Source: Bacteroidales bacterium (GTDB lineage Bacteria > Bacteroidota > Bacteroidia > Bacteroidales > F082). Taken from it: a DNA stretch of 64,000 nt. The notes below the pieces were generated by a model. It saw nothing but the letters and a program-made list of their open reading frames with translations, ran no database searches and had not been told where the DNA came from. Every line of letters starts with the position of its first letter. The stretch's first letter is position 1. A program made the position numbers and the translations under genes. The stretch covers positions 191 through 64,190 of the forward strand of contig JAFSJF010000142.1 of assembly GCA_017439405.1 (NCBI GenBank). Direction: 5' to 3'. Below are positions 34,838-56,841 of this stretch, in pieces.

Positions 34838-34842
34838 AAAGG

Positions 34843-35848: not shown

Positions 35849-35945
35849 CTTTAAACAGTCAACTTTCTTTTAAGCTCTAGTAATAAATGTCATTTCCCGA
35901 ATCAGAGATGCCAATACCTTTTCTAAAATTTGACCATTCAAGAGA

Positions 35946-36749: not shown

Positions 36750-36776
36750 ACGATTCAGTTTTTAATTCAATTCTTC

Positions 36777-38006
36777 TTAAATCGGGCTGCAAGCCGTCGT
36801 CACGGCCTTGCAGCCCTTCAAAATATCATAATCTTTATAGTTTCTCCCCACATTCGTTCCCCTGCTGTCCAAAATCACCGAGCCGTTGGAGCCGTCGCAA
36901 TGGTAGCGGTCTGGACCAATGGCCTCAATGCTCGAATAGGATGGTGGCGTGATGATGTTGCCGTTCCTGTCCATCAAACCGTAGCTCCAATCTGCGGTGC
37001 GGTATCTCAGACAGTTGGCCGTGGCTGATTTCAGTATGCCTTCCTCGTCATACTCATCGGTGGAATACTCCATTTTCTCGACCTCATCGAAGTTGCATGG
37101 ATTGATGATGTTGCATTCAAAGTCCAGCACCTGGTTGAGATGGTCGAGGCGGCACACGAAAATGCGGCTATCCTCATGGTGAACGGTGATGTTGTCGTAC
37201 TCTATCGGCAGAAGCATCTGACCTTTCGCATCAAACAGGCCATAGTTCCACTCGCGGTCTTGAACCAACCAAAAGCCTTTCGTGTCGAATGCCATTTCAT
37301 AGTATTCAGGACTGACCACCCAATGGCCTTGCTTGTCGATGAGGCCAATACGGTCGCCGTCGCCCAACATCTGGCACAAACCGTTGTGGAAGCAGTAGTC
37401 ATCGATGCGATTGGTATAAGGGAAATCTTTGTCTATCGCTTTCCGTCCCCTGTGGTCGATGAAATGCAGTGTTCCCTTCTCCATCACGCAGGCTACACCT
37501 TCAGAGAAGATCCAAGCCTTTTCGTATTGTGCTGGAATTGCCACCTCACCCGTGAAACGGTTGAAATAGCCACGCTTGCGTTCTTCGGAGGAAGAGAAGC
37601 AACTCAGGCTGTCGCCATCGGATGACTTGCAGACCCATTGGATGCCTGTTGCCGTGCGCTGTCCAAGGGTCGTGTTGTAAAGGTAGCCCGGATAGTCGTC
37701 GTGATAGATTACGAAGGGGCTGACATACTGGTTGCCATAAGGGTGAAGATAGGTCGGGCTGTTCACCATGCGCCGATATTCACGCCGCTTGCATGCACGG
37801 TCTATACCGTTATAGACATTGATGACAAGAACGATGGAGACTATCAGCGCGACAACCGCCGCACTTGTTGCAAACACACGCCACACGAATCTTCCGAACT
37901 TGCTTTCGGCCTTGTAGCCGAACATCTTGGCCACCCAACGGGCAGCTTGCTTAAGGGCTCCGTCTTTTTTCGGATTGCCCATCTCTGTTTTTTGTTTGTT
38001 GCTCAT
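36777..38006 (-). CDS. WG-repeat (KWG) containing membrane-anchored protein
   Basis: The N-terminal TM segment is VFATSAAVVALIVSIVLVI. It has repeated ..GL(I/F/M)D..G..(V/L).P.EY.. units typical of WG-containing repeats. Confidence 0.65.
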   Translation of the reverse strand: MSNKQKTEMGNPKKDGALKQAARWVAKMFGYKAESKFGRFVWRVFATSAAVVALIVSIVLVINVYNGIDRACKRREYRRMVNSPTYLHPYGNQYVSPFVIYHDDYPGYLYNTTLGQRTATGIQWVCKSSDGDSLSCFSSSEERKRGYFNRFTGEVAIPAQYEKAWIFSEGVACVMEKGTLHFIDHRGRKAIDKDFPYTNRIDDYCFHNGLCQMLGDGDRIGLIDKQGHWVVSPEYYEMAFDTKGFWLVQDREWNYGLFDAKGQMLLPIEYDNITVHHEDSRIFVCRLDHLNQVLDFECNIINPCNFDEVEKMEYSTDEYDEEGILKSATANCLRYRTADWSYGLMDRNGNIITPPSYSSIEAIGPDRYHCDGSNGSVILDSRGTNVGRNYKDYDILKGCKAVTTACSPI

Positions 38007-38172
38007 AATCTTTACTGTTTTAATGGATTAGTTTTGAGTGTATTATTCCCGTGCAGCCTTCCCTCGTATTAGGGGAAGGTGCAAAATTGATTCAGATTTG
38101 CTTTATTGTCGTTTTCTGACAATATAGACAGAAACGACGGGCAAAACCTATCACCTTAGATCAAATTTTTGG

Positions 38173-38202
38173 AAAAAAAGAGCCGTGCTATTCGAACACG
38201 GC
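38173..38202 (-). terminator. Candidate intrinsic terminator ending the nine-gene operon
   Basis: The minus-strand RNA has GCCGUG-loop-CACGGC followed by UCUUUUUUU. A T-run also occurs on the plus side, so it may be bidirectional. Confidence 0.45.
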
Positions 38203-38262
38203 ACAATTCCTTTTTTAGATGAAGTATCCACCAATATCAGTCAGGTTTTTGTCCTAACATTA

Positions 38263-38511
38263 TTACCAATCCGTTACCGACCATGTGCCTCCACACATAA
38301 GGCATTTGTATGTCTTTTTTGCACTTTTATTAAAATCCATGTTTTTTTGTGTCACATACTTACCTGCGGCATAATGAAGTCCACGAACAAGACAACCAAG
38401 CGAGCCAACTGCAATACATAAGGCATCCCCAACCTTTTTTGTTACCGTAGTTTCAGCCTTTTTTAGCACAATCACATTCGTGCTCTTACAACTTTCATTG
38501 ATGCATTCCAT
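38263..38511 (-). CDS. Small split zinc-ribbon protein with central hydrophobic segment
   Basis: 82 aa. It has CINESC at the N-terminus and CLMCG at the C-terminus, flanking VGDALCIAVGSLGCLV. It is the last gene of the operon. Confidence 0.5.
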   Translation of the reverse strand: MECINESCKSTNVIVLKKAETTVTKKVGDALCIAVGSLGCLVRGLHYAAGKYVTQKNMDFNKSAKKTYKCLMCGGTWSVTDW

Positions 38512-38519
38512 AACTTTGA

Positions 38520-39179
38520 TTATTTTGCTTTAATACAATATAATAAAGCGATGTTTTTTGGCCTGTTTTCATTGTCTGCCTTTACTTTTCCATAATTAGA
38601 ACTAACCGCCCCAGATGTACCTGCATCAATCTTCAAACGCATATTATGTGTATGACTGCCTTCTGAAGTCGTTCCTTTGCCTGAATCCGAATAAGAGAAA
38701 TCACTATCGCTATACGACACTTCAAAAACCGTGTATGAACTGAACGCACCATTAGTAATTGCATGAGAATGATAATATACTTTATGGTGGTGTTCTCCTG
38801 AAGAATCGGTTTTCAAGGTTTTATCAATATATACTTTGTGTGAATGCCCTTGTATTGCATCTTCTTGGTAATCTCCCAGCTCCCGTTCTGGATCTACATT
38901 TCCTTCCATATCCCAACCACGAATGAATCTTCCTTGCAAGTCAGGAACGCAGAAAAATCCTAACGTTGTTTCTTCTGGAGTAAAAGTTGTTCCGATAGTA
39001 TCAAACAACTCTTGAAAGAGTTCAATTCTATATTCTTTCCCATCGCATATCAACCATCCCTTTGGAACTTTTTCCATTGCAAATGCTCCAATTGTACCAA
39101 TAGGCACAACTGATTGTTTAAGTTCCTCAATTTCTTGTTTTAACAATTCTAATTGCTGAATTATCTCTGAATGTTCCAT
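38520..39179 (-). CDS. Coiled-coil plus phage tail-collar domain protein (MdpB-like)
   Basis: PIGTIGAFAMEKVPKGWLICDGKEY..LFQELFDTIGTTF..FCVPDLQGRFIRGW matches the tail-collar motif. The N-terminus QQLELLKQEIEELKQ is a coiled coil. Confidence 0.75.
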   Translation of the reverse strand: MEHSEIIQQLELLKQEIEELKQSVVPIGTIGAFAMEKVPKGWLICDGKEYRIELFQELFDTIGTTFTPEETTLGFFCVPDLQGRFIRGWDMEGNVDPERELGDYQEDAIQGHSHKVYIDKTLKTDSSGEHHHKVYYHSHAITNGAFSSYTVFEVSYSDSDFSYSDSGKGTTSEGSHTHNMRLKIDAGTSGAVSSNYGKVKADNENRPKNIALLYCIKAK

Positions 39180-40768
39180 AATAAATGAAATTTTGAATTA
39201 TATACCATTTCTATTTGTGTTTGTGAAGCCATGCCGACCAACACATTGTACAAGACACTCGCTTTGTCTTTTACAGTTTTATTATTGAAACCGAGTCCAA
39301 AAAATTTCTTCGCGTATTCTAATGCGTTTGTATCATTTTTTTTAACCCCTTCTCCCCTAAAATACATCAATGCAACCATGAACAAGCACAATGGATCATT
39401 ATTCAACATTGAAAAGATTTCAAATGCCTTGCGATAAGACTTTCTTCTTCCCAATCCTTCGTACTCCATCAATCCAAGCCAATAATACTGGCTTCCTTCT
39501 GTGAATTGAAACTCCGCTTCATCATACTCTTTATTGTTTAGGCATTGTAGACCAAATTGTAACCTCTGAGCTGGCGTAGGCTTCAATACCTCAAACATCG
39601 CGGCTCCTTTTGCAACTGCATAAAGATAATCGTATGAATCAAAAGAAGGAATTTCAAACATGGCACCCTCTATGGTCTTCTTTCGTACCAGTTTTTTCTT
39701 TATCAATGGGATAACGCTTGATCCTCCAACTAAAAATACCTTTTTGATGTCTTTCCATTCCCAGCCATAATCAGCCAACAGAACATCACAACATTGAATT
39801 GTGTCATCAATAAGAGGTTCTATCATTTCGTTATAATCATCAAGAGAAAGGTGATAATCAAATAATCCAAACTCTTGTTTGTGGTATTCCGTTATTCCAG
39901 TTGATAATTGGTGTTTAGCATCTATGGGAATTTGGGATAGTTTGTCAACATCCCTCATTGCAGCAACATAGTCTCTAATGGAAACAGTTTCATTGCGAAT
40001 CGGGCGGCCATATTCATCCATAGGCATAGACATCAACAAATCCACTACTTCCTGAAAAAAGGGTGTCATTTGAACTAAATCCTTATTAATTAACGCATCA
40101 ATGTAAATACCGCCAATATTCTTCCCACGTGGAATTGCAGAGTCTCTTTCGCCAATGACACGAAGTGTTCCATTATAAAACTGCAATAATGCTGGATCAA
40201 AAGTACCTCCACCTAAATCATAAACAAGAAACTTGTCGTTGTTATTTATGGTTGATTTCTCTTTAATGATGGAATAGGCAGCCGCTTCTGGTTCCTTAAT
40301 TATTTCGATGCCATTATAATCTATTTGGGCCAAATGTGCTGCTGACATCATGGCATTCCATCTATAATCGTTGCAAATTGTGGATGAAGGTATGGTTAGA
40401 ACAACCTTGTTAAACGAATTGACTTTTGCAGTTTGACAAGCCCTATCGTGAACATTTTTCAGAACATAAGCGACATCAGCCACCCATCTACCTGCTTCTG
40501 GGCCTGATAAAAATGGCTTGAATTTATCATGATAGTTTTCAGGGTCTTGATTGCGGCTTCTGACAGCCTTTTTTCCTGTATAATAAACATTATTGGCTTT
40601 ATCAAAAAAAACAGCGGTTGGGCAAGCATATTGACCACCGTATAATTCAAAATCGGTGTTTGCTGCCACACTATCTTCCATGTTAACCAACACTCCCCTT
40701 CCCGTGTCTGTGTCATAAACCGCAGCTTTCGTCCAGATGGTGCCGAAATCTATTCCTAAGTATTTCAT
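39161..40768 (-). CDS. Hsp70-family ATPase (nucleotide-binding domain only) fused to Sel1-type repeats
   Basis: The actin-fold phosphate motifs are MKYLGIDFGTIWTKAAV, VYDLGGGTFD and VFLVGGSSVIPLI. There is no DnaK substrate-binding domain. The C-terminus reads YWLGLMEYEGLGRRKSYRKAFEIF..ALMYFRGEGVKKNDTNALEYAKK (Sel1-like). Confidence 0.8.
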   Translation of the reverse strand: MKYLGIDFGTIWTKAAVYDTDTGRGVLVNMEDSVAANTDFELYGGQYACPTAVFFDKANNVYYTGKKAVRSRNQDPENYHDKFKPFLSGPEAGRWVADVAYVLKNVHDRACQTAKVNSFNKVVLTIPSSTICNDYRWNAMMSAAHLAQIDYNGIEIIKEPEAAAYSIIKEKSTINNNDKFLVYDLGGGTFDPALLQFYNGTLRVIGERDSAIPRGKNIGGIYIDALINKDLVQMTPFFQEVVDLLMSMPMDEYGRPIRNETVSIRDYVAAMRDVDKLSQIPIDAKHQLSTGITEYHKQEFGLFDYHLSLDDYNEMIEPLIDDTIQCCDVLLADYGWEWKDIKKVFLVGGSSVIPLIKKKLVRKKTIEGAMFEIPSFDSYDYLYAVAKGAAMFEVLKPTPAQRLQFGLQCLNNKEYDEAEFQFTEGSQYYWLGLMEYEGLGRRKSYRKAFEIFSMLNNDPLCLFMVALMYFRGEGVKKNDTNALEYAKKFFGLGFNNKTVKDKASVLYNVLVGMASQTQIEMVYNSKFHLLWNIQR

Positions 40769-41472
40769 TTCGTATTTTCCTTATACTGATATATGACAAC
40801 TTCCTGCTCTTTCAGGCATTGGTCTCCTTTTCTAAAGCCTTTGCCCAATGACTCAGCAACGATGTTGTTTTTTGAGAGGTCGTCGGTTTCTTGGATTGTA
40901 ATGATTTTCTGGAACTGGTTGTCAAAAGGCATACCAACACCAGAGACAGGCGTTATTTCAACTATTGACAATAAGTGTTCTATCTGTTGTTCCATGTTTT
41001 GCAGAATGATGTCTGACGTCTGACGTTTATAGCCTGCCGTCTCAAGATAAACAGCAGAAGATATCGCACTTTCAGTCATGGCAGAAATGTTTTTGCCCTG
41101 TTTTTGAATCTCGATTTTGTAGTTGGCTATTGTTTCATTAGCAGTTTGAATCAATTCGTCTTTTCCACAACAATCTTGTTGTAGTGATGTTATAGATTCA
41201 TTAGCTTGGTTCAATTCATTTTCAAGTTGTTCTATTTTCTCTTTGGCTACATCCAATTCTGCTGAACTGGTTGATTGAGGTCGTGGCCGATTGTCTGTTT
41301 GTTCGTTTATATGGTCTTTCCAATAATCAAATAAACCATCAATCAAATCATCAAGACTATCACATCGTTTGCCAACTACATAGGCCTCCAATTTATTCCA
41401 CTTTTCAATCGTTTGTCTGTTTTTCGATGTGGCAATAGTCAGTTTGCCAAGTTCTATCTTTTTCATGATCAC
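40765..41472 (-). CDS. GrpE-like nucleotide-exchange-factor homologue (coiled coil plus beta domain)
   Basis: It has a long coiled coil. The C-terminus is ..VSGVGMPFDNQFQKIITIQET..IVAESLGKGFRKGDQCLKEQEVVIY, which follows the GrpE G..FDP..H.A....V..V...GY......R.A.V.V pattern. 4-nt overlaps on both sides. Confidence 0.6.
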   Translation of the reverse strand: MIMKKIELGKLTIATSKNRQTIEKWNKLEAYVVGKRCDSLDDLIDGLFDYWKDHINEQTDNRPRPQSTSSAELDVAKEKIEQLENELNQANESITSLQQDCCGKDELIQTANETIANYKIEIQKQGKNISAMTESAISSAVYLETAGYKRQTSDIILQNMEQQIEHLLSIVEITPVSGVGMPFDNQFQKIITIQETDDLSKNNIVAESLGKGFRKGDQCLKEQEVVIYQYKENTK

Positions 41473-42965
41473 AAGTTGTTAGAATATGATTGTATTATTC
41501 TTGCTATTTGCAGCGAAACTTCGTTAGCTCGCGTATTTCCAATAAAGCCGAATTTTACAGCGCGTTTTTGCCAAGTTTTGCACAATGAGTCGTATGCGCT
41601 TTGTATTTCGGTTTTAGTTGTGTCCTTTGAAACATTCAGCCTTTCAAAATCTTCGCTACCGTATTCACCAAGTACACATTTCACCTCTTCCCACTCGTCT
41701 TCAGTAAAATAATCCTCCCCATTATAATAATCATTCAATATGTAATACTCAGCATAATGCTGATGCAATTCAAAATCCAATTGATTGATTCTTTGAGTAA
41801 TTCCTTGAATAACTATTCTTACATCATGCCCAATTTCTTTTTGTTGTATAGTTCTAGCACAAACTTTCCTCAACCGAGATAAAACCCTATTGCATTTGTG
41901 AAAATCTGCTCTACCGCCAAAATGGTCTATGACAATTGATTTCAATAACTCGACTCTTGAAAAATCATACAAATACGATTTGTAGGCTTCGGCGGTTGCG
42001 ATAGGGTTTTGTTCGAAATACTCAATTGAGAGACGAACACCGTCTATTGATAGCAATGTGCATAAATGAGAACGAATCTCCTTTGTTTGCCAATCAAACT
42101 TGTCAACAAAAGTATTATAATCTGCCGTAAAGGTTGCAATATTGTTTATTTTCGGAAGTTCCCGAAGCAATTCTATATCGTAGTCATTCAACATGAATGA
42201 TGCTTGGGCGGGTAATGCAGCAATGGGATAAATGTTTAGGAAATAGTACCTAATGTCTGCGTACCTTTCCTTATTGCTTCGGATCTTTTCTTCCGCTTCT
42301 TCAAACTTTTGAACCATCATGTCGGCACGAGTTAAGGCGGCAATAGAATTCAAACCTGAAATCAAACCTGTTGATTCGTGGAAGTCGGCTACCGCAGTAA
42401 TATCTTTGCTTTTAAACTCAGGATATACCAAATAAATAATGGCATCAGGGCGGTTCTCTTCTTTGGTCAATAAATCTCGAGTATGCTGGGAATCAGTACC
42501 CATTAAAGAATCCAACCCAGGAGTATCTATCAAATCAAACACTTCCAATAACGGATGGTTTAAATACACATCAACCCAATGCACACTATCCAGCAATTCC
42601 TTATGAGTACTACTATATCCAACAAATTCAGACAGTTTTTCGATTGAGTATTCCGATTTCACCCCATCTAACATACGAACAACTATTTTTTCTTTCCCGT
42701 CATCAGAGTGTTTTACATGATGAAACCAATTGACATTATATGTCATTACTTCAACAGCAGTAGGTACAATATACCTCCCAAGGAATGCATTTAACAGAGT
42801 GGATTTGCCCGTTTTGATTACGCCAGTAATAGCAACACGAAGTGGACCTTGTAAATCAACAAGTGCCATTTTACATGAATCATACACCGCAGACAATTTG
42901 GGGTTGTTTTGCACTTCGATTTGTAACGATTCAATAAAAGCTTTTATACCTGCTTTTTCATTCAT
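41469..42965 (-). CDS. Bacterial dynamin-like GTPase (soluble partner)
   Basis: G1 is GVIKTGKSTLLNAFLG, G3 is LIDTPGLDS and G4 is LTRADM. A helical stalk follows. No TM paddle is evident. Confidence 0.8.
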   Translation of the reverse strand: MNEKAGIKAFIESLQIEVQNNPKLSAVYDSCKMALVDLQGPLRVAITGVIKTGKSTLLNAFLGRYIVPTAVEVMTYNVNWFHHVKHSDDGKEKIVVRMLDGVKSEYSIEKLSEFVGYSSTHKELLDSVHWVDVYLNHPLLEVFDLIDTPGLDSLMGTDSQHTRDLLTKEENRPDAIIYLVYPEFKSKDITAVADFHESTGLISGLNSIAALTRADMMVQKFEEAEEKIRSNKERYADIRYYFLNIYPIAALPAQASFMLNDYDIELLRELPKINNIATFTADYNTFVDKFDWQTKEIRSHLCTLLSIDGVRLSIEYFEQNPIATAEAYKSYLYDFSRVELLKSIVIDHFGGRADFHKCNRVLSRLRKVCARTIQQKEIGHDVRIVIQGITQRINQLDFELHQHYAEYYILNDYYNGEDYFTEDEWEEVKCVLGEYGSEDFERLNVSKDTTKTEIQSAYDSLCKTWQKRAVKFGFIGNTRANEVSLQIARIIQSYSNNL

Positions 42966-44824
42966 TTTGTCAAATCTTTATGAAGTGTAGCCGCTTGTGC
43001 CAAATACTTGTCACATTCTCGTTTCTTATCACTTATCTGTTTACGCTGCTGACTATCGCTATCAAGACCTCTCAAGACGTTGGCACAAGTCGCACTTTCA
43101 TTATCCAACTCCTTGCTAAAGGTAATCATTAATTGTGTTTCTCCATCAGTAATAATTTCAGCAACTTTTGTTGATATGTTGCTTTGTGAGGTACTTAACT
43201 GAGGAGTAATTGCCTCCATGATTTTTCGTCTTTTCTCTGCTTTTACTCGTTCAGCCCCTTTAATAAAAGCTCTTACACCGCCAATTAATGTTCCAACAGC
43301 ACCTGCAATTGCAGCGCCGATTTCAGCCCCAGCTAAAGTTCCAACACCAGGAAAGAATACCGTACCAACAACAGCTCCAACCACACCGCCGACTACACTT
43401 CCTCCTAATGTACCATACATAAATACATTGCTTAAAAATGCATTTCTGTATATTGAGACCTTATCGATTTTAATATCATCGCTTACTGTATATTTCTCGG
43501 CATCACCTCCTATATTGTCAAGTTGTTCTTGAATAATTGAAAGGCCTGTTTCCTTTTTCAACCATGAATATGTATGGGCAAATTCATCAGAAAGATAATC
43601 TTGTAATTTGTTGGTTTTGTTAATTACAGCACCAGAAACAACACCTCCTAATTGCTCGGGATTATTGATGAATTCATCCATTTGCAGCTTTTCTTCAATG
43701 GAAGATTTCACATCTACAAAATCTGCTTTAATTCGATTATTAGCTCTAGCATTTAACTTTTTAATCTCCCCATTCAGCTTGGTTTTCCAAGCTCCTGATT
43801 CTTTCTTTATTTCGTTTAGGCGTGCTGCAGCATCCTCCAACTGTTTCTTCTTTGCAGCAGCTTTTTCAGGGCTTGAAAATGATTGGAGTAAAGTGTTCAA
43901 GATGTTACCGTAATCACGAAGCGCATTCAACAGACATTCTACTTGTCTCTTTGCCATTATCACTTCAATGTTATTCTCTATTGTCTCCAACAAAGGGAAA
44001 AACTTGTCAAATCCAGTAGTAGAATAGTCAGTAACGACACCTGCTTTGTGTTTTTTTAGATTTTCATTCGACACCATACAGAATTGCAATTCTCCTTCTT
44101 TCCAATCTTTTACTTCAGAAAGATGTTCTTTGTTTTTTGTAAGAACAACAGATGGATTTCCTTGATCCATGTGAGTCAAGACATGTATGACACTCTGACA
44201 CTTTGAACACTCCAACAACTGTTTGACGTAAGATATTTCAGATTCTGTCAGTTCACTTTCCCCGCTACCAACCAAAAAAATAACATCGGCTAATGGAGCC
44301 ATTGAAAAAGTTGTGGCAGCATGGAGCGGATTAAGAGAGCCAAGACCAGGAGTATCGATAAGTACCAACCCGCCTTTCAAATGTTCATTTGGCAACTCAA
44401 CAACTATCAGGCGGACATTTTTTTTGTTGTTTTTGTTTTTTTTCTCAGATACATAGTTATCAATACTAGTTCTATCAATAATATCTGGTCGGGGTTCTGC
44501 CGATTCACCATCTTTGGCGGCATAATACACTGTAATTCTTTCTTCTGTTCCATAACGCACGATGGTATTTGTGTTGGTACAGACTCCTCCATCCACCGTG
44601 CAAATGTTTTCACCAAGAATACTATTAATTAAAGAAGACTTCCCCGTTTTCACTTCTCCAGAAAAAAGAGCATAATACTCCTTTTTGTTGTATATTGAGG
44701 TCATCTTCTCCAATACATCCAAAATCCCAGTTCCCTTTGCCAAAGCATCATTGGCTTCCATTTGCCTTGAGAACTCTATAACTTTAGTGGTGAGTTCGTT
44801 AACTCGTTTACGGATGTTTTCCAT
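42962..44824 (-). CDS. Bacterial dynamin-like GTPase with Gly-rich membrane paddle
   Basis: G1 is GEVKTGKSSLINSILG, G3 is LIDTPGLGS and G4 is LTHMD. The hydrophobic hairpin is GTLGGSVVGGVVGAVVGTVFFPGVGTLAGAEIGAAIAGAVGTLIGGV. Confidence 0.82.
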   Translation of the reverse strand: MENIRKRVNELTTKVIEFSRQMEANDALAKGTGILDVLEKMTSIYNKKEYYALFSGEVKTGKSSLINSILGENICTVDGGVCTNTNTIVRYGTEERITVYYAAKDGESAEPRPDIIDRTSIDNYVSEKKNKNNKKNVRLIVVELPNEHLKGGLVLIDTPGLGSLNPLHAATTFSMAPLADVIFLVGSGESELTESEISYVKQLLECSKCQSVIHVLTHMDQGNPSVVLTKNKEHLSEVKDWKEGELQFCMVSNENLKKHKAGVVTDYSTTGFDKFFPLLETIENNIEVIMAKRQVECLLNALRDYGNILNTLLQSFSSPEKAAAKKKQLEDAAARLNEIKKESGAWKTKLNGEIKKLNARANNRIKADFVDVKSSIEEKLQMDEFINNPEQLGGVVSGAVINKTNKLQDYLSDEFAHTYSWLKKETGLSIIQEQLDNIGGDAEKYTVSDDIKIDKVSIYRNAFLSNVFMYGTLGGSVVGGVVGAVVGTVFFPGVGTLAGAEIGAAIAGAVGTLIGGVRAFIKGAERVKAEKRRKIMEAITPQLSTSQSNISTKVAEIITDGETQLMITFSKELDNESATCANVLRGLDSDSQQRKQISDKKRECDKYLAQAATLHKDLTK

Positions 44825-44835
44825 GATTTGTAGAT

Positions 44836-46140
44836 TTAGAATATGTCAAAACTATTGTCTTCTATTGTGAAACTATCATCATTGTCATCTTCAAAGTCAG
44901 GATCATCTTCTTCAAAACTCATTTCTTCGTGGGAATCCAACGAATCATCTTCATCAAAAAACGAATCCTCAAAATCATCTTCTCCATCGAAGTTGTATTC
45001 CCGGTCATCCAATAATTCATTGGCAATGCTATCATTTTCCATATCCATCCAATTATTCAATATCTCATTCACATCAAAAGTCAAATGTTCATAATCGTGG
45101 ATATTGTTCGCTGCAAGAAATGAATCCAAAGAAACTCCTTGTATTGTTCCAAGAGCAATATGCTGCATGTTAAAGTCTGGAGTGGGTATGTCTGTTGATA
45201 CCATAAAACATTGAGAGTCTTTCCATGCATCAATGAATTGTTCGAGTGGGTAGGGCTTAGCGACATCACCTGTGCCAGGGTCTTTCAATACAACATAAGA
45301 ATGATTTGGATCTGACAAGTCGATGCCGGCAACAATTAGAGCGTGGTCAGGAGTACCTCCCAAGAAAAAATCCCTTAAAGTTTCTCTTATTGGTCCATGA
45401 TGTAGTTCTCCTGAATCAACCCCAACGATGATTTGATGGCCTTGCGCAAGCTCGGCAACTAAATTACCCACATTAGCTCCTACTACTGATGTTGTGGGAA
45501 TATTGTAGTACTCTAATAGATTTCCGATACAATTCATTGGCGTACCCATACCACCATCTACATGATACCATCCATTGTTTTCAGCAATTTCCATAAGCAT
45601 TTCTTGGGGAACATCTATGCCAAAACGTTCCAAAACAAGTTGTTGCGATTTGACTGCGCAAGTGTCTTGATACCATTGATAAACTTCTCCCGATACATCA
45701 ATTAACGGGTCTTCCCCAAAGTGAGCATTTGCATAATAGATTTCTCTTTCCATATTTATTAGTTTTTTTTCATTGTTTCTTTCATTTTCTATAGACCCTG
45801 TTTCCTCCTCAAAACTATCACTTTCAAGAGAAAAAATTTCATCAATGAAGCCGCTTTGCTCAATAGGCGAATACAAATCGAGTGTGGGAAGTTCAATAGA
45901 CGGCAATTCCATCTCAAAAGGAACAGGCTCATTATCAATCAAATCCAAATCAAAATCGGCCTCAATATTGCTGTCAGTCTCCAAAACCGCCTGCATCTCA
46001 GAATCATTGTCGATGAAAGCCTTCATCTGCCGTATTTCCTCATCCGGCAAGTTGCAGTCGAGATACGCGGCATATTTCTCTATGCTGATATGTGGCAAGT
46101 GCTTAACCATAACATTCCTCCTTTCTGAGCGTCTTTTCAA
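44836..46140 (-). CDS. Acidic-tailed protein with central papain-fold (C39-like) cysteine-peptidase-type domain, in anti-sigma position
   Basis: The motif order is Cys (YQDTCAVKSQQLVLERFG), then His (TPDHALIVAGID), then VVLKDPGTG. There is no TM segment. The C-terminal ~60 aa are almost entirely D/E/F/S. The alternative start MVKHLPH at 46110 overlaps the sigma stop as ATGGTTAA. Confidence 0.5.
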   Translation of the reverse strand: MKRRSERRNVMVKHLPHISIEKYAAYLDCNLPDEEIRQMKAFIDNDSEMQAVLETDSNIEADFDLDLIDNEPVPFEMELPSIELPTLDLYSPIEQSGFIDEIFSLESDSFEEETGSIENERNNEKKLINMEREIYYANAHFGEDPLIDVSGEVYQWYQDTCAVKSQQLVLERFGIDVPQEMLMEIAENNGWYHVDGGMGTPMNCIGNLLEYYNIPTTSVVGANVGNLVAELAQGHQIIVGVDSGELHHGPIRETLRDFFLGGTPDHALIVAGIDLSDPNHSYVVLKDPGTGDVAKPYPLEQFIDAWKDSQCFMVSTDIPTPDFNMQHIALGTIQGVSLDSFLAANNIHDYEHLTFDVNEILNNWMDMENDSIANELLDDREYNFDGEDDFEDSFFDEDDSLDSHEEMSFEEDDPDFEDDNDDSFTIEDNSFDIF

Positions 46141-46723
46141 ACATCTCCTTCGCCAATCTATGTTTGTTATAATAATTGTCCATAGTCATGCCAAGCGCCT
46201 CAGCCGTTTCCCTGTCAGTCCTCAATTCAACATGACGCAGACGGATGATTTGGCTATAGCGTTTGTTTTTCATCAGACCAAGAATCACCTCCACATCCTC
46301 GCGTTGGAACATACTGAGATCTTCTTCTATAGACGGCTCTTCGGGCCAAATTCTATCACTTGGCTTGCCTTTTTCTGGGTTTTTCGGTGAAATCGTTTCA
46401 GTTTCAGGCTTTTTGCTTTTCACCTCAAACTGGCTGTAACAGTAGAACTTGCAGACCACCTTCAGCCATTGCGTCAGGGTGCTTTCGCCATGGTAACCCA
46501 TCAGGCGGCACCGTCCCGTCCTTCGGCTTGGGGTCATGATGAGCACATAGATTTCATTGATGAACTCAATGCAGCTCTCGCAATCGGTATAGTAGCCGTC
46601 AAAATATCGCTTGAAAAGCGGATAGCAATGCTGGTACAGGTATCGCTTCGTGGTGGCTTCATCCCTACGTAAGATGGCCTGGGCTATTTTCAAGTCCTCG
46701 GTAAAGATTCGTATGTCGGGCAT
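46103..46723 (-). CDS. Sigma-70 family (ECF-like) RNA polymerase sigma factor
   Basis: The region 2-like part is ..YLYQHCYPLFKRYF..FINEIYVLIM..STLTQWLKVVCKFY. The region 4-like HTH is ..RYSQIIRLRHVELRTDRETAEALGMTMDNYYNKHRLAKEMFEKTL. Confidence 0.65.
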   Translation of the reverse strand: MPDIRIFTEDLKIAQAILRRDEATTKRYLYQHCYPLFKRYFDGYYTDCESCIEFINEIYVLIMTPSRRTGRCRLMGYHGESTLTQWLKVVCKFYCYSQFEVKSKKPETETISPKNPEKGKPSDRIWPEEPSIEEDLSMFQREDVEVILGLMKNKRYSQIIRLRHVELRTDRETAEALGMTMDNYYNKHRLAKEMFEKTLRKEECYG

Positions 46724-47098
46724 AGGTCAAGGTCGCGCTTCTCGCGGTTCGTTTTTTTGCCGTCAGAGGCTCCCATGGCCAGCCGATTGTATTGAAGTCT
46801 AAGAGCATAAAGAAAAGCGTGGGAGCAAGAACTCTTGCCTATCCCGGTTGCTCGGGCTCTCGCATTGCCCACCTATCGAGGATAAGCAATGCTCGCAGCC
46901 CACGCTGGATCATATATACACAGATTGTTGGTATTATACAAACACAACACCAACATCGGATATACGAATCCCATGAACGCGAATCATTGCTTTACCGTGC
47001 GATAGGTTAGGAATTTGCGAGATTCAAGCAACCCGCAGATAAAACGCCAATTCGACGCTATTCTTATATGTCTGTCACCATCTTATTAAAGAGGTATG
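46724..47098 (-). promoter_or_regulatory. ~375-nt GC-rich untranslated leader of the sigma operon (candidate structured cis-regulatory RNA)
   Basis: No credible ORF is present. Nested helices are visible: GCGUGGG...CCCACGC followed by UUUUCUUU, enclosing GGCUGCGAGCAUUGC/GCAAUGCGAGAGCC and GCAAGAGUUCUUGC. Further hairpins are GUUGGU..ACCAAC and CGCGAGAAGCGCG. Confidence 0.45.
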
Positions 47099-47104
47099 AC
47101 GGTG

Positions 47105-47112
47105 CAAATTTA
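47105..47112 (-). promoter_or_regulatory. -7 box TAaaTTTG, likely promoter of the sigma/dynamin/Hsp70 operon
   Basis: The reverse complement of caaattta is TAAATTTG. It lies between the upstream cassette terminator and the leader. Confidence 0.5.
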
Positions 47113-47169
47113 CATTATTAATCCATCGGTACATTATTCTCTTTGAAAAAAAACACTTCATCGGATCCA

Positions 47170-47207
47170 CAAAAAAGCCTTGACACAAAAATGATTGTAT
47201 CAAGGCT
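47170..47207 (-). terminator. Intrinsic terminator of the SIR2 cassette
   Basis: The minus-strand RNA has AGCCUUGAUAC-loop-GUGUCAAGGCU (11 bp including one G-U pair) followed by UUUUUGU. It lies 34 nt after the 110-aa gene stop. Confidence 0.7.
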
Positions 47208-47240
47208 TCCATAGTGCAACCAAAGAGTTTTGATTGTTGA

Positions 47241-47573
47241 TTACTTTCCTGTCGGATTAGGCTCTTTTATCCAAACACTAACGCGATACTTTTGCTCTTT
47301 CTCCATTTGTTTTTCCGATGCCACCCAGCGGCACTCAAGAAGGTCTTCATTATACGAAAGTATTGCAAAGATAAATTTTTGCTCCAATTCATTCAATTTT
47401 AGGCTTCCAAACACATCGTCATCCTTATAGACATAGGCTTTTTTGTTATTTTCAACATAACAAATTCTTAGCTTATCATCACGTTTAATCTCTGTGCAAA
47501 AACATGGATAATCATCCACGTAAAAAACTCCTAAATGCCTGTTGATTTTTTTAATGATATCTTCTTTGTTCAT
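47241..47573 (-). CDS. Hypothetical 110-aa protein, third gene of the SIR2 cassette
   Basis: The ORF lies 20 nt downstream of the ATPase gene. I see no recognisable motif. Confidence 0.5.
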   Translation of the reverse strand: MNKEDIIKKINRHLGVFYVDDYPCFCTEIKRDDKLRICYVENNKKAYVYKDDDVFGSLKLNELEQKFIFAILSYNEDLLECRWVASEKQMEKEQKYRVSVWIKEPNPTGK

Positions 47574-47593
47574 ATTTAAATTATTTGGAATAG

Positions 47594-49378
47594 TTATTGA
47601 TTGCCCACTAATTGTTTGATGGTTTCATAGTGCGGTATGTTGTTGTTTGTACACACGAAAGAAAGTCTAACGAATACTTCTCGGTCATTCTCGTCAAATC
47701 CCAAGCACATGGAAGCATTTTTGCATATATTAGCAATTACTGGGATGAGGAGTCGCTCTCTTTCCATCAGCGGGAAAAGATTGATATTCGCAAAGTCATC
47801 AAAAACAATATGAAGATTTTTGTGTTTGGATAGCCTTTTCCATCTATACACATATTCCTTAATAATTGAAGTATACTCTTCTGCCCAGATGCAGCCCAAA
47901 CTTGTTTCCCAATAGTGAATATTTCGTAAAGCGAATTCCGACAAGTCATATTTCTGAATTATTCTTCTAAAATGCTGTTCTGTCTTGCCCAATAGAAAAA
48001 CAGCAATAGTTGTATCATTTTGTTGTGCCTGTCTCGATATTTCATCGAACAATCTGTCATACCCCTGTTTGTCGATCAAATTGATACTATGCGTTATGTT
48101 TTGGGCATTATATGAAACAGTTTTTTCGCTATGGTCTGACATCACATCATTAATAACATTGGCAAACCTGATTGGCTTGTCCTCCATCTTTTGTGAGCAA
48201 TTATATCGAAATCTATTAAGCAATGATTGAGGGTATCGCAAATTACCTTGTTCAAGTCGAAGGCCTGCGTTGTCGGATGAAAAACGTCTGGTAAGCAGTG
48301 AGTGCATACTAGGATATATCTTCACACTTAAATCTCTCAATTTGCGGTATTTATGCCATCCATGAACATGCTGTTGAAGGTCGCTCTTTATAATTTGAAG
48401 CTCATAATATGTGTATTCGGCTGCCTTGTCTGTGTTGCTTCGCATATTAATGATAATGTCAGCGTTTAGATGAAGCGTTCTTCCTCGCTTGTCAAGTACC
48501 AATATGGATACAGCCGATGTCTTTCTCAGTTTTAAAATAAGGTCAGTGAACGGTAATCTTTCAAGTTCGTCATCTCTGAAAGCTGTAAAACCCTCTATTA
48601 CATAAGAACTCCATACAAATCCCACTTTATCATCGCACGAGGTCGTTGCAAGGTTTTCGGCCTTATCTGTTATCTCTTTTTGGAAGTCTTTAAATTGGCG
48701 AATGGCAATAGATGTGTAACTATTTGAAACGAAATCATCTTTGTTTTGGTCAAAAATATCTTTTTTGTCAATGGCATCATCTTTCAAATAAGCCAAAAGG
48801 TTGTCGGAGTTGCTAGTATCTCCGTATGTCCAGTGCATAGATTGCGACCGGTCACTATAATTGATAATTTCATGACGTAGAAGTTTACATATAGGACACG
48901 AGACTATCTCAGAGGCATCACAATCTTGTTCGAATGATGGGCAAGTACTTACAAGACCATTCAACTTCTCTCGCATATCGGGGAAATATTTGCAAAGTTT
49001 GCACCTATGAGTTGCATCTGCCTTGATGTTTGGCAGTTTTATATCGTCAATCATTTTACCCACCTCAAGGCCTATGTATTTTTTCATCAACTCGCTTTCG
49101 CGCTGGTTCAATGTTCGATATTTTGGAGACATTTGATAATCCTTACCATACAATCTGGCGAAATAATCGTCAACTCCACGCATAATCTGCATAGCCAGAT
49201 CGGATTTACTGATGCCACGATCTCCATATATCACAATGCATATTCCATCCCTGCTCTTGTTTTCTCCTCGCTTGCCAGGCAAACGCAATCCTCCATAAAA
49301 CAGGTCGTCAAACCCCGAGACCCCTGTGATTATTTTGTCAATGTCTAATATACTATTGTTTTCCATATTACTTTTCAT
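47594..49378 (-). CDS. KaiC/RadA-like double RecA-fold ATPase with inserted Cys-rich zinc-ribbon module
   Basis: ITGVSGFDDLFYGGLRLPG..CIVIYGDRGISKSDLAMQI is a KaiC-type N-terminus with a Walker A-like GDRGISKS. The insert carries CKLC..C..C..CPIC. The KaiC-like strand YELQIIKSDLQQHVHGWHKY is present. The second half (IAVFLLGKTE.., HIVFDDF..) looks like a degenerate second RecA domain. Confidence 0.6.
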   Translation of the reverse strand: MKSNMENNSILDIDKIITGVSGFDDLFYGGLRLPGKRGENKSRDGICIVIYGDRGISKSDLAMQIMRGVDDYFARLYGKDYQMSPKYRTLNQRESELMKKYIGLEVGKMIDDIKLPNIKADATHRCKLCKYFPDMREKLNGLVSTCPSFEQDCDASEIVSCPICKLLRHEIINYSDRSQSMHWTYGDTSNSDNLLAYLKDDAIDKKDIFDQNKDDFVSNSYTSIAIRQFKDFQKEITDKAENLATTSCDDKVGFVWSSYVIEGFTAFRDDELERLPFTDLILKLRKTSAVSILVLDKRGRTLHLNADIIINMRSNTDKAAEYTYYELQIIKSDLQQHVHGWHKYRKLRDLSVKIYPSMHSLLTRRFSSDNAGLRLEQGNLRYPQSLLNRFRYNCSQKMEDKPIRFANVINDVMSDHSEKTVSYNAQNITHSINLIDKQGYDRLFDEISRQAQQNDTTIAVFLLGKTEQHFRRIIQKYDLSEFALRNIHYWETSLGCIWAEEYTSIIKEYVYRWKRLSKHKNLHIVFDDFANINLFPLMERERLLIPVIANICKNASMCLGFDENDREVFVRLSFVCTNNNIPHYETIKQLVGNQ

Positions 49379-50384
49379 TAGCTGTTAATTCCTCTAATAT
49401 TTGATGATAGAGGTCCTGATATCCCTCTGCATCATTGACAATGCATAAATGCTGAGACTCATAATATTCAGTTTTCAATCTTGACAGGAGTTCGCCATCT
49501 GGATCATCGCGTCCGCCTCTAAGCCAATAAACTCGTTCACTATTGTTTTCAAGTTTGGCATGACGTAAAAGACGTGCGGTTGTCATGTCATCTAATGAGA
49601 GGCCAAGTATGATACATGTGTGATGTGTTAGAAAGTGCAGTTGTGTCGCATTCTGCCAAGAATACACGTCTTTGCTAAGTTGGTAAAATTCTTCGTCTGA
49701 CAATACAATATAATTGCTCTCTTTACTAGGCAGCATTTCAGAAGGCGGAGGAATGTAACCATGAACATGATAGATAAAAAAACAATTCTCATTGTAAGGT
49801 TCTTCTTTCCATCCTGCGTATACATCAAGGGGAATCATCTTTCTTCTTGTTTCACTATATGACATTCCTCTATTATCCAACAATATCTTAATGGCCTCAG
49901 AAAGAAAGTTGTTATAATTCTGAGTAATTACTGTACGGATTGATGTTTGCCTAAGAATGAAATCGGCAATAGAGAATAAGGATCCAAATGGAACTTTTTT
50001 TAGGTTTTCAACGGTCGGATTGTCTTTATACTGCTTAAACTTATCATAGGATTTAGTAAGGATTCTCCTGTTGCACCTCGTATAAAGCCAATTGCGAATA
50101 ATCGGAATATAGCTGTTTCCCAATCTATTTTTTAAAATAGCAGCTTTCAGAGGAGCATTTGCCAAATTGTTCAAAGTGTTTTTTTCCTCATTATTAATAC
50201 AAGCAGCCTCTGTTAACTCTTCTAATAGATATTTCCACGATAATGTTTTACCTCTTAATCCATCAAATTCATGTCCTTCTGGATACACACTAGAAAAGTC
50301 AGTGCCTGCACCAAGGAACAAAGCCATCGCTTTGTTATCTCTAATATCCTTTTTCAGTTCTTCTATATTCTGACTCGGGAACAT
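49368..50384 (-). CDS. SIR2_2-family (ThsA/DSR-type) putative NADase
   Basis: The motifs are ALFLGAGTDFS (GAG), VITQNYNNF (TxNYD-like), FIYHVHGY (catalytic His), IVLSDEEFY and IILGLSLDD. The start MFPSQN is at 50384. The first 86 codons of ORF 49368..50642 cover the promoter region and are rejected. Confidence 0.7.
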   Translation of the reverse strand: MFPSQNIEELKKDIRDNKAMALFLGAGTDFSSVYPEGHEFDGLRGKTLSWKYLLEELTEAACINNEEKNTLNNLANAPLKAAILKNRLGNSYIPIIRNWLYTRCNRRILTKSYDKFKQYKDNPTVENLKKVPFGSLFSIADFILRQTSIRTVITQNYNNFLSEAIKILLDNRGMSYSETRRKMIPLDVYAGWKEEPYNENCFFIYHVHGYIPPPSEMLPSKESNYIVLSDEEFYQLSKDVYSWQNATQLHFLTHHTCIILGLSLDDMTTARLLRHAKLENNSERVYWLRGGRDDPDGELLSRLKTEYYESQHLCIVNDAEGYQDLYHQILEELTANEK

Positions 50385-50442
50385 TATGCCTATCTGTCTA
50401 TTCCTATGAATTTTGAAATAAAAATGTACAATTTTTATGCTG

Positions 50443-50450
50443 CAAATATA
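50443..50450 (-). promoter_or_regulatory. -7 box TAtaTTTG for the SIR2 cassette
   Basis: The reverse complement of caaatata is TATATTTG, 59 nt upstream of ATG 50384. Confidence 0.45.
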
Positions 50451-50611
50451 ATGAATAATTGATTTAGCTCTACAAAAAAAACTTATTTTCAAAATTACTA
50501 CTACAAATGATACAAAATACAATCGTAGCAGGGTAGCATAAATAACGAAAATGAGCAACTGAACAACTCCTAACTGATAACTCCTATAATAAATACGGCA
50601 AACTTGCAGAA

Positions 50612-50658
50612 TTTTTTGGAAAAAAATAAAGCCAAGAAGCACTTTTGCGTTCCTTGGC
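50612..50658 (-). terminator. clpB intrinsic terminator (right copy of the island-flanking repeat)
   Basis: The minus-strand RNA has GCCAAGGAACGC-AAAA-GUGCUUCUUGGC followed by UUUAUUUUUUU. It lies 26 nt after the clpB stop. Confidence 0.65.
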
Positions 50659-50683
50659 TTTTCAATCGTATTGGCAAAGGCTT

Positions 50684-53422: not shown

Positions 53423-53492
53423 ACAAACAACCATATCCATCTGTTATTTCATATCAACGATGGATTGTATGCTGTCTGACTCTCAAATATAC

Positions 53493-54404: not shown

Positions 54405-54431
54405 CTATGTTCATCTTTGCAAAAATAGCGC

Positions 54432-54550: not shown

Positions 54551-54555
54551 CCCTT

Positions 54556-56837: not shown

Positions 56838-56841
56838 GGCG

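Follow-up and report, generated by a model that had tools for sequence, protein, structure and literature searches.

Three consecutive genes on the minus strand occupy positions 47170-50450 of the window, that is, of the whole stretch of 64,000 nucleotides of DNA from a gut Bacteroidales bacterium that was analysed. They are ordered SIR2, KaiC-like ATPase and a protein of 110 amino acids (aa). The features of this cassette and of the region around it are as follows:

50443..50450, minus strand: candidate -7 promoter box of the Bacteroidetes type, TATATTTG (sequence and motif search)
49368..50384, minus strand: gene 1, SIR2_2-family protein of 338 aa, predicted NADase effector (Pfam and homologue alignment)
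47594..49378, minus strand: gene 2, KaiC-like double RecA-fold ATPase of 594 aa (PDB profile, AF2, Foldseek and column statistics)
47241..47573, minus strand: gene 3, protein of 110 aa from a small conserved family, possibly HIRAN-like (family HMM, AF2 and Foldseek)
47167..47210, minus strand: intrinsic terminator, 16-bp hairpin and U-run, closing the three-gene unit (RNA folding)
35833..50622, no strand: strain-variable, mostly low-GC region of 14.8 kb (GC scan and sister-contig comparison)

Layout and genomic setting

The cassette is enclosed by signals of its own, as the promoter-type box and the strong terminator described in the earlier note are both present. The TATATTTG box lies 59-66 nt 5' of the SIR2 ATG. 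Since matches to TAnnTTTG are common across the window (49 in the motif search vs 32.5 expected), the match alone is little proof of a promoter and the argument for it is positional only. In the terminator, a U-run follows a 16-bp stem (47173-47210), and the folding energy of -30.9 kcal/mol (z = -7.4) was equalled by none of 200 shuffled sequences. Direct folding found this hairpin, which a simple terminator scan did not call, probably because the scan only counted loops of 3-8 nt and a shorter perfect stem. The open reading frame of the SIR2 gene spans 49368..50642 on the minus strand, and the ATG at 50384 (MFPSQNIEEL...) was taken as the real start since it agrees with the N-termini of the homologues. 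The ATPase gene overlaps the SIR2 stop by 11 nt, as had been noted before. Alternatively, a start at its second ATG (49366), which is used in the public annotation of 590 aa, would place it 1 nt past this stop. Between the ATPase stop and gene 3 there is a gap of 20 nt.

The variable region is bounded by the clpB terminator and a SocA/Panacea antitoxin gene, with the cassette at its clpB-proximal end. Its GC content is 0.32-0.40 over the cassette (47000-50599) and over 38200-46199, and 0.41-0.53 elsewhere, compared to 0.51-0.60 in clpB and about 0.52-0.58 in the host. A sister contig (L030) is 95% identical to window positions 53425-50623 and 88.5% identical to 35832-34789, and between these matches it carries 8.6 kb of other genes without similarity to the window. 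The neighbours of the cassette in the window are of a defence type and include, besides the antitoxin gene, dynamin-like proteins that match the PADLOC LeoA/LeoBC models at 1e-18 to 1e-19. The flanks of related loci match IetA, LeoA/LeoBC, type II restriction-modification, NsnB/C, PifA and AriA, which are given here as occurrences and not as enrichment. Other flanks contain a DNA methylase with HD-CE and ORC-CDC6-like genes, a transposase, or a faint TIR_2 match alongside Peptidase_C14 (caspase-family) proteins. As a side observation, the dynamin-like flank genes correspond to Eleos, and PARIS-type genes are likewise found in the flanks of related loci.

Capsular-polysaccharide loci hold a co-directional cassette in at least three independent lineages (L002/L005/L014, L021 and L023), where it is surrounded by epimerases, UDP-glucose dehydrogenases, Wzz/Poly_export proteins, glycosyltransferases and flippases. 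The capsule loci with a cassette also carry small accessory genes (PDDEXK_3, GIY-YIG, AAA_15/21 and DUF4143), and a SIR2-less relative (L028) lies in such a locus as well. This frequent placement inside capsule-biosynthesis loci had not been foreseen. Other settings comprise the clpB hotspot with its dynamin cluster, a methylase/HD-CE/transposase region, an M48-peptidase block, a CHAT-TPR gene, and efflux or PBP genes; the copy in the window is far from any capsule gene. In the examined loci, neither integrase nor transfer genes travel with the cassette and no repair genes are linked to it, nor are kaiA or kaiB linked to gene 2. The best reading of the cassette is that of a self-contained, horizontally acquired operon, and the case for it is built on the tight spacing, the own terminator, the low GC content, the strain-variable site at clpB and the defence-type flanks.

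The three proteins and their linkage

Gene 1 matches the Pfam family SIR2_2 (PF13289) with an E-value of 4e-11 and 43.6 bits at a gathering cut-off of 24.5, and this domain is present in all 55 clusters homologous to it. All SIR2_2 hallmarks named in the earlier note were found (FLGAGTD, ITQNYNN, YHVHGY and LGLSLDD), and they fall on columns that are invariant in an alignment of 31 family sequences (G25, G27, N156, Y157, H206, H208, G209, G261, S263 and D266). The NAD-binding GxG, the catalytic Asn (TQN) and the catalytic His (HG) are all intact, and the NCBI record MBQ6772104.1 calls the protein 'SIR2 family protein'. Searches of PDB sequences with the single protein and with the family profile detected no similarity to solved SIR2 structures. 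Judged by its family and its catalytic residues, gene 1 probably encodes an NAD-cleaving effector.

Gene 2 contains the two motifs ITGVSGFDDLFYGGL and GDRGISKS. The latter is the Walker A motif (K58) of an N-domain that also has a Walker B acid (E262), candidate catalytic glutamates and, within an insert, a C4 cysteine cluster (C126, C129, C161 and C164). Among 40 family members K58 is invariant, S/T59 is found in 31 and E/D262 in 34, with domain 1 following the pattern G-x-R-G-x-[SGA]-K. The second RecA domain had been described as degenerate, which agrees with the column statistics: a P-loop is absent, with only LLGKTEQ in place of GxxxxGK[ST], and DD is conserved. Both the Walker B acid and the residue following the Walker A lysine are missing from a distant CHAT-linked clade, so that ATP hydrolysis would not be required universally.

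The relationship of gene 2 to KaiC rather than to HerA/FtsK, which had been proposed before, is borne out by profile and structure. The family profile matched only KaiC among PDB sequences (best E-value 0.016). The AF2 model (pLDDT 79.8) comprises two RecA-like domains, and the best 50 Foldseek matches listed against the PDB were all full-length KaiC with E-values around 1e-13. The full-length alignments reach an E-value of 3.6e-14 with TM-scores of only 0.32/0.40, which is due to a different domain orientation. When the single sequences of genes 1 and 2 were searched against the PDB, only chance matches were obtained (malic enzyme and mandelate racemase, E-value around 1). The gene 2 protein of the window does not match Pfam KaiC (PF06745), which is weakly matched by 19 of the 40 family members (best E-value 2.2e-4), and two distant relatives (P0245 and P0263) reach 51.6 and 51.5 bits at a cut-off of 26.6 (1e-13). 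The putative membership of gene 2 in PF06745 rests on transitive homology.

Gene 3 shows no sequence-recognisable motif, as had been stated before: none of the 31 + 7 family members matches Pfam, including HIRAN (PF08797), even with lenient cut-offs, and a PDB profile search returned only a chance match to a TNF ligand. In its AF2 model (pLDDT 76), six strands form a beta-barrel-like arrangement with two to three helices, in an order compatible with a HIRAN-like barrel. The Foldseek matches include Rad5 (E-value 0.019), 3k2y_C (TM-scores 0.58/0.62, rmsd 3.4), the HIRAN domain of HLTF (E-value 0.14) and a phage protein named 'HIRAN domain' (probability 0.93), with E-values of 0.02-0.2, none of them at or below 0.001, and with comparable scores for SmpB-like barrels. 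A comparison to the HLTF HIRAN domain with hhalign, for which an approximate query sequence was used, yielded a probability of 1.4%. The resemblance of gene 3 to HIRAN is weak, being marginal at the level of the fold and not significant at that of the sequence.

The ATPase family comprises about 395 cluster representatives at E <= 1e-3. In each of the 27 loci whose upstream sequence is long enough, a SIR2 gene lies directly 5' of the ATPase gene, and this linkage extends to ATPase relatives of 780-1080 aa. The SIR2 proteins beside ATPases of 783, 932 and 1077 aa match the gene 1 family profile at 1e-59 to 1e-91, which indicates that both genes diverged while staying linked. Exceptions and additions occur, as the relative in L028 is SIR2-less and a CHAT-TPR gene neighbours the cassette in one clade. 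The family HMM places a copy of gene 3 immediately 3' of the ATPase in 16 loci, one of them in the window, and a divergent copy occurs in L021. Gene 3 is confined to the main Bacteroidales clade and missing from several others, and the universal core thus consists of two genes, not three. Conservation as a unit holds for the SIR2-ATPase pair and not for gene 3. Fusions of SIR2 and ATPase among the long relatives were considered and rejected since the extra length consists of inserts within the KaiC domain. The family is found mainly in Bacteroidales of the gut and the rumen. No relatives were found in viral contigs scanned with the ATPase profile, a result without bearing on the model either way.

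Possible function of the cassette

With a probability of roughly 0.55, the cassette is a SIR2 abortive-infection anti-phage operon in which a KaiC-type ATPase replaces the HerA, STAND or pAgo partner. PADLOC 2.0 matched no system with the three proteins, its HerA and SIR2-HerA models gave nothing at E <= 1, NCBIfam gave nothing for the three cassette proteins, and a literature search found no paper linking KaiC with SIR2 in defence. The absence of a PADLOC match agrees with the earlier statement that none of the listed SIR2 defence architectures pairs SIR2 with a KaiC-type ATPase and makes the defence assignment one of guilt by association, with genomic context and homology pointing to a defence role and to NAD depletion. 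The cassette is a credible candidate for an anti-phage system. In the proposed mechanism, the ATPase would form a ring oligomer, as do KaiC, RadA and HerA, that binds SIR2 subunits and holds them silent. Its N-domain would bind or hydrolyse ATP and receive an infection cue, and the C4 insert may be zinc-ribbon-like. The gene 3 barrel could provide or adjust the recognition of this cue, which might be a phage protein or the free 3' ends of DNA. Once triggered, SIR2 would cleave NAD+ and growth would stop.

If the KaiC-like call for the ATPase were wrong, the cassette could be a plain SIR2-HerA (Nezha) system, which has the same gene order, a SIR2 gene tightly coupled to one for a RecA-superfamily ATPase with about 600 aa. 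However, this explanation is effectively refuted by the KaiC matches in both the Foldseek list and the PDB profile, by the distant relatives exceeding the Pfam KaiC threshold, by the silent PADLOC HerA models, and by two RecA-like domains in place of a HAS barrel with one FtsK/HerA domain. A DNA-repair or replication-fork module, in which a RadA/KaiC-like zinc-finger ATPase and a HIRAN-like protein that binds 3' ends act together and SIR2 serves as a regulatory ADP-ribosyltransferase, is very improbable. The C4 cysteine cluster together with the RecA-like fold is reminiscent of RadA/Sms, and the best folds for gene 3 are the HIRAN-containing Rad5 and HLTF. Nevertheless, the HIRAN signal is weak, the cassette is patchy, strain-variable and not core, no repair genes are linked to it, and the strict SIR2 linkage suits an effector role.

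The placement in capsule loci raises the question of a regulatory or metabolic module in which a SIR2 deacylase or ADP-ribosyltransferase tunes capsular-polysaccharide synthesis. Co-directional embedding in several of these loci and the SIR2-less relative in L028 favour it, and KaiC-like ATPases have been proposed as archaeal signalling hubs. It is nonetheless unlikely since other copies occupy unrelated settings, the copy in the window lies far from capsule genes and possesses a terminator and a candidate promoter of its own, the studied SIR2_2-type members are NADase effectors, and capsule loci with their other accessory genes may be mere insertion hotspots. Slightly more probable, and still improbable overall, is a selfish module of the addiction or toxin-antitoxin-like type, or one for mobile-element exclusion, with a SIR2 toxin held by the ATPase and/or gene 3. 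Low GC content, patchy spread and variable regions beside SocA/Panacea antitoxin would fit, the small gene 3 could serve as inhibitor, and a precedent for exclusion exists in SIR2-pAgo systems, which act on plasmids besides phages (PMC11452484). Against this, the conserved two-domain ATPase of 600-1000 aa exceeds the needs of an antitoxin, several clades do without gene 3, and no integrase or transfer genes accompany the cassette.

SIR2 NADases rank with the commonest effectors in bacterial immunity, and the means by which each is silenced and then triggered are under active study. ATPases of the KaiC family work slowly and cooperatively and respond to nucleotide state. If the abortive-infection reading is true, a KaiC-type ring as controlling partner would be a new regulatory scaffold for SIR2 NADases, and KaiC-like ATPases, which are abundant and mostly obscure outside cyanobacteria, would gain a concrete bacterial role. 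Few defence systems of gut and rumen Bacteroidales have been tested, and phage resistance in these bacteria is relevant to microbiome ecology and phage therapy. A further lead is that the cassette recurs in capsule loci, which are major determinants of phage susceptibility. More tentatively, the pairing of SIR2 with a KaiC-type ATPase might represent a widespread, uncatalogued form of immunity and the first known case of a KaiC-family double-RecA ring acting as both sensor and gate of an NADase. Bacteroidales might have added a HIRAN-like reader of DNA 3' ends from phage replication, and the accessories might be interchangeable: one clade has CHAT-TPR, and L028 may have another effector.

Comparison with known systems

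The cassette shares a SIR2_2-type domain with conserved catalytic Asn and His with Thoeris ThsA, DSR1/DSR2, SIR2-APAZ/pAgo SPARSA and Avs5, and the SIR2 of one distant relative weakly matches the ThsA model (E-value 1.9e-5). It differs from them in that its SIR2 is a stand-alone protein of 338 aa and in that Pfam and PADLOC found no SLOG, TIR, pAgo/APAZ, STAND NTPase or long sensor repeats. For gene 3, the best fold matches point tentatively to HIRAN (PF08797; HLTF and Rad5) and include Rad5, the DNA-bound HLTF HIRAN domain and the phage protein; it differs in that its family has neither a Pfam HIRAN match nor more than the 1.4% obtained with the approximate HLTF query.

In SIR2-HerA, an oligomeric RecA-like ATPase is coupled to a SIR2 NADase that is subject to an ATP checkpoint and is activated by end-exposed DNA (PMC11514289, PMC11472057 and PMC13434337); PMC13434337 describes the NADase as ATP-gated and switched on by such DNA. 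The cassette is likewise a compact operon in a defence-type neighbourhood, with a SIR2 gene immediately 5' of the gene for a RecA-superfamily ATPase that is predicted to oligomerise. Abortive infection is predicted for it as well, and ATP gating would fit the proposed logic. Unlike SIR2-HerA, its ATPase is a KaiC-type double RecA protein with a cysteine insert instead of a HAS-barrel HerA/FtsK protein, and the main clade adds a third small protein. With KaiC, gene 2 shares two tandem RecA-like domains and the pattern K-I-x-T-G-x-x-G-(F/L)-D-(D/E)-L-x-x-G-G-L followed by the P-loop, which aligns to KaiC CI. Since its second domain has no P-loop, a clock cycle with a CII-type autokinase is unlikely. 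Gene 2 is further set apart from KaiC by a C4 cysteine insert of roughly 50-100 aa, with larger inserts in relatives, and by its strict linkage to a SIR2 gene.

Layout of the three-gene cassette

The ORF scan of the window placed three minus-strand ORFs, all in one direction, where the earlier note had located its three genes, and every sequence motif quoted there is present.

Features of the cassette in the window
49368-50384, minus strand: gene 1, SIR2 protein, 338 aa from ATG 50384 (MFPSQNIEEL...)
47594-49378, minus strand: gene 2, ATPase, 594 aa, with an 11-nt overlap with the SIR2 stop codon
47241-47573, minus strand: gene 3, 110 aa, starting 20 nt after the gene 2 stop
47167-47210, minus strand: terminator, 16-bp hairpin and U-run; -30.9 kcal/mol, z = -7.4 (RNA folding)
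59-66 nt upstream of the SIR2 start, minus strand: candidate promoter, TATATTTG box (motif search)
47105-47112: second TAnnTTTG, preceding the gene downstream of the cassette

The mechanical ORF of gene 1 (49368-50642) opens at an upstream GTG. Since 30 homologues open with the same M-x-P-x-Q-N-I motif, ATG 50384 was taken as the biological start. The public annotation starts gene 2 at the next ATG (590 aa), 1 nt past the SIR2 stop. NCBI lists the proteins MBQ6772102-105 of this Bacteroidales MAG as hypothetical, hypothetical, 'SIR2 family protein' and ClpB. The cassette is an autonomous operon. The folding energy of the hairpin agrees with the strong terminator that had been claimed. The proposed promoter box is indeed found upstream of the SIR2 gene, but its motif is frequent in the window (49 matches versus 32.5 expected), so it provides positional evidence only. 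The second TAnnTTTG fits a separate downstream transcription unit.

The SIR2-ATPase pair and the small third protein

Gene 1 matches Pfam SIR2_2 with 43.6 bits (cut-off 24.5). This score, together with motifs that are invariant in its family, bears out the earlier SIR2_2 call. These motifs are G25 and G27 (GxG), N156-Y157 (within T154-Q155-N156, 'TQN') and H206-V-H208-G209; from general sirtuin knowledge, we take the GxG, TQN and HG positions to be the NAD-binding loop, the catalytic Asn and the catalytic His. Judged by its sequence, gene 1 belongs to the SIR2_2 proteins, and its active site is intact. With 55 clusters at 90% identity, all of them carrying PF13289, its family is small; it is also divergent. 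No solved SIR2 structure was matched by the gene 1 sequence or the family profile, and none of the PADLOC SIR2 models was matched by gene 1.

The single gene 2 sequence had no Pfam match at threshold. A 40-member family profile searched against the PDB retrieved KaiC chains only (35 matches, best E 0.016), with the profile alignment placing K-I-x-T-G-x-x-G-(F/L)-D-(D/E)-L-x-x-G-G-L and the P-loop on KaiC CI, and weak Pfam KaiC matches occur in 19 of the 40 members. Two Rossmann-like alpha/beta domains are predicted by the AlphaFold2 model (pLDDT 79.8, pTM 0.64), for which the best 50 Foldseek matches listed among solved structures were all full-length KaiC (E 3.6e-14 to 2e-12, ~600 aligned columns); the low TM-scores (0.3-0.4) reflect a different orientation of the two domains to each other. 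In an exhaustive profile search, 395 representative clusters were obtained at E<=1e-3, 103 of them at E<=1e-30. Distant relatives of 900-1000 aa exceed the Pfam KaiC gathering score (51.6 bits versus 26.6), and the family is thus tied to KaiC through transitive homology. Gene 2 is KaiC-like, not HerA-like. The description of a KaiC/RadA-like protein with a degenerate second RecA domain was therefore correct, given these matches and a second domain without a P-loop.

Conserved positions of gene 2 (column statistics over 40 sequences)
G52-x-R-G-[IV]-[SGA]-K58: Walker A; K58 in 40/40, following residue S/T in 31/40
E94 and E96: candidate catalytic glutamates; E94 is E in 31/40, E96 is E in 34/40 and D in 4/40
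Position 262: Walker B acid; E/D in 34/40, Gly in the six most distant members
C126, C129, C161, C164, C153: cysteine cluster; C126, C129 and C161 each 40/40, C164 and C153 each 39/40
Domain 2: no P-loop (LLGKTEQ); D527-D528 conserved

The SIR2 gene lies directly upstream of the ATPase gene in all 27 fetched loci with an ATPase and enough upstream DNA, a count that includes some near-duplicate loci. A SIR2_2 gene is also found immediately upstream of three distant ATPase relatives, P0143 (783 aa), P0245 (932 aa, itself above the Pfam KaiC threshold) and P0168 (1077 aa), and these SIR2 proteins match the gene 1 family profile at 1e-59 to 1e-91. Across loci, SIR2 and ATPase identities drop in parallel, and therefore the pair is inherited as a unit. 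Since this linkage is general whereas gene 3 is limited to the main Bacteroidales clade, the universal core consists of two genes. Hence, the trio suggested earlier holds as a conserved unit for the pair, but not for gene 3, which is confined to one clade. Loci L007-L009 and L027 are without gene 3. In the most distant full-length clade (L016-L018, ~35% identity), a protease-like TPR-CHAT protein of 1109-1146 aa and a CHASE2 protein are encoded downstream instead of gene 3, and the ATPase retains neither the Walker B acid nor the Ser/Thr that follows the Walker A lysine.

Positions given for this arrangement
L016, 5897-10353
L017 and L018, 9671-14238

A further locus, L028 (338-3435), encodes a 687-aa KaiC-like relative with no SIR2 gene within the 337 nt of upstream sequence. 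This ATPase gene overlaps by 13 nt with that of a downstream 348-aa protein, which has no precomputed Pfam match on record and no PADLOC match. This arrangement may represent an effector swap.

In most loci, a small ORF follows 10-30 nt after the ATPase. These ORFs form one alignable family ([LI]-G-[DE]-[YF]...Y-G...I-G-x-L...C-[KR]...R-[VI]-[ST]-[IV]-W), to which a database search added 22 clusters, none with a Pfam domain. The family HMM places a copy immediately behind the ATPase gene in 16 loci, one of them that of the window; a divergent copy occurs in L021. The AlphaFold2 model of gene 3 (pLDDT 76.4) combines six strands with two to three helices. Its top Foldseek match among solved structures was K. 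lactis Rad5 (E 0.019), along with 3k2y_C (E 0.024, TM 0.58/0.62, rmsd 3.4 A) and the DNA-bound HLTF HIRAN domain (E 0.14); SmpB scores in the range between these matches. Rad5 presumably includes a HIRAN domain, and 3k2y is presumably one. In a viral structure library, a protein named 'HIRAN domain' matched as well (prob 0.93, TM 0.50). Sequence methods gave no support for HIRAN, in line with the earlier remark that gene 3 carries no recognisable motif. The modelled fold makes a HIRAN-like gene 3 a lead with about even odds.

Genomic setting

The cassette is mobile. Its GC content (0.32-0.40) contrasts with that of the adjoining clpB (0.51-0.60), with a sharp step at ~50600. The contig L030 comes from a close relative with a ClpB of the same 90%-identity cluster. 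It shares 95.3% identity with window 53425-50623 (clpB through its terminator) and 88.5% with 35832-34789 (a SocA/Panacea antitoxin gene). The interval enclosed by these two anchors measures 14.8 kb in the window, whereas in L030 it is 8.6 kb long and contains unrelated genes, which places the cassette at the edge of a strain-variable hotspot. All related contigs bearing an organism title are from Bacteroidales, Bacteroidia or Bacteroidetes MAGs.

At its far end, the variable region is bounded by a conserved SocA/Panacea and MqsA-like HTH antitoxin gene (window 34789-35832), after which L030 has an MqsR-like toxin gene. Strain variation is also seen on the other side of clpB (window 53425-58083 versus L030 2003-9837), with a type I restriction-modification system, Fic and DUF1016 in L030 and different genes in the window; thus, clpB lies between two hotspots. 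A 409-aa WG beta-repeat protein (36777-38006, minus strand; Pfam WG_beta_rep, E 6.7e-23) is encoded in the variable region at host-like GC, and the domain recurs in two flank ORFs of related loci. The 674-aa ORF antisense to clpB (50645-52669, plus strand), in a GC-rich stretch, is almost certainly spurious, produced by composition, and not a gene.

Block adjoining the cassette
38520-46723, minus strand: seven-gene block, directly downstream of the cassette

The products of this block are a sigma-like protein of 206 aa, a Peptidase_C39_2-like protein of 434 aa that has an acidic tail, two dynamin-like GTPases (one matching PADLOC LeoA at 6e-19 and LeoBC at 1e-18), a GrpE-like and an Hsp70-like protein, the latter with a Sel1 repeat, and a phage tail-collar-domain protein. 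In L001 and L013, the pair is likewise followed by the core of the block (peptidase, dynamin-like and second-GTPase genes); in L024, a near-identical locus, part of the block adjoins the pair. An Eleos-like system that brings its own pair of chaperones is one possibility for the block; a functional link to the cassette is another.

Among 136 flanking ORFs from 15 loci compared with PADLOC, matches were obtained for IetA (3 ORFs), LeoA (3), LeoBC (2), TRIP13 (2), type II methyltransferases, a restriction enzyme, NsnB, NsnC, PifA, AriA and several candidate families. Pfam matches included integrases, RHS repeats and an M48-peptidase block that recurs. The presence of defence-type genes in these flanks is supportive, not quantitative.

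A recurrent block upstream of SIR2 (L004 108-2762, L006 4953-8941, L010 4107-6922) is directly beside it in L006 and L010 and ~6 kb off in L004. It encodes a ~220-aa protein, a ~120-aa protein and two to three ~270-aa paralogues, which are probably the Peptidase_M48 matches counted in seven flank ORFs. Upstream of the cassette, L021 (1052-5368) encodes a protein with a faint TIR_2 match and two Peptidase_C14 (caspase-family) proteins, and L022 (1003-6837) carries DNA methylase, HD-CE and ORC-CDC6-like genes and a DDE transposase.

Proposed function and relation to known systems

On the reading with the most support, and by analogy with SIR2-HerA, the cassette would be a SIR2-effector defence system acting by NAD depletion (abortive infection), to which a probability of roughly 0.55 is assigned. 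The ATPase would assemble into a KaiC-type ring that binds SIR2 and serves as its scaffold and gate, SIR2 would act as an NADase once triggered, and gene 3 might contribute to DNA-end sensing.

Other explanations are less probable. A toxin or addiction/exclusion module is an unlikely reading, though the foremost of these. Slightly behind it stands a capsule-linked regulatory module: the SIR2-KaiC module lies co-directionally inside capsular-polysaccharide biosynthesis loci in L002/L005/L014, L021, L023 and L028 (epimerases, UDP-glucose dehydrogenase, Wzz, Poly_export, glycosyltransferases, flippase), and the same loci also hold small accessory genes (PDDEXK_3, GIY-YIG, AAA_15/21, DUF4143). A role as a DNA-repair accessory is improbable. 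A plain SIR2-HerA system is effectively refuted; the earlier note had named a HerA/FtsK-type gene 2 as the case to check, and such an ATPase is contradicted by the KaiC profile, Foldseek and Pfam matches.

No PADLOC 2.0.0 system was matched by the three cassette proteins or six distant-relative proteins; the sole signals were a weak ThsA SIR2-domain match (1.9e-5) and a P-loop-region match to mad8 (2.6e-8). Full-text literature searches found no paper that brings up both KaiC and SIR2 in connection with defence, and the recent discovery and classification papers checked for KaiC do not mention it. The earlier statement that none of the SIR2 defence architectures it listed pairs SIR2 with a KaiC-type ATPase is consistent with both results. 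The SIR2 and KaiC-like module, a candidate defence system, is well-defined, testable and apparently uncatalogued, with a family of several hundred clusters.

The kind of system, a SIR2 effector with an oligomeric P-loop ATPase, is already known. SIR2-HerA is described as a supramolecular complex of a RecA-like ATPase and a SIR2 NADase (PMC11514289, PMC11472057), and a recent study describes an NADase that is subject to an ATP checkpoint and is activated by end-exposed DNA (PMC13434337). The cassette would follow an analogous logic of SIR2 and a predicted oligomeric ATPase, but its partner is KaiC-type; relative to PADLOC 2.0.0 and the literature searched, this partner family is new, and so is the third component.
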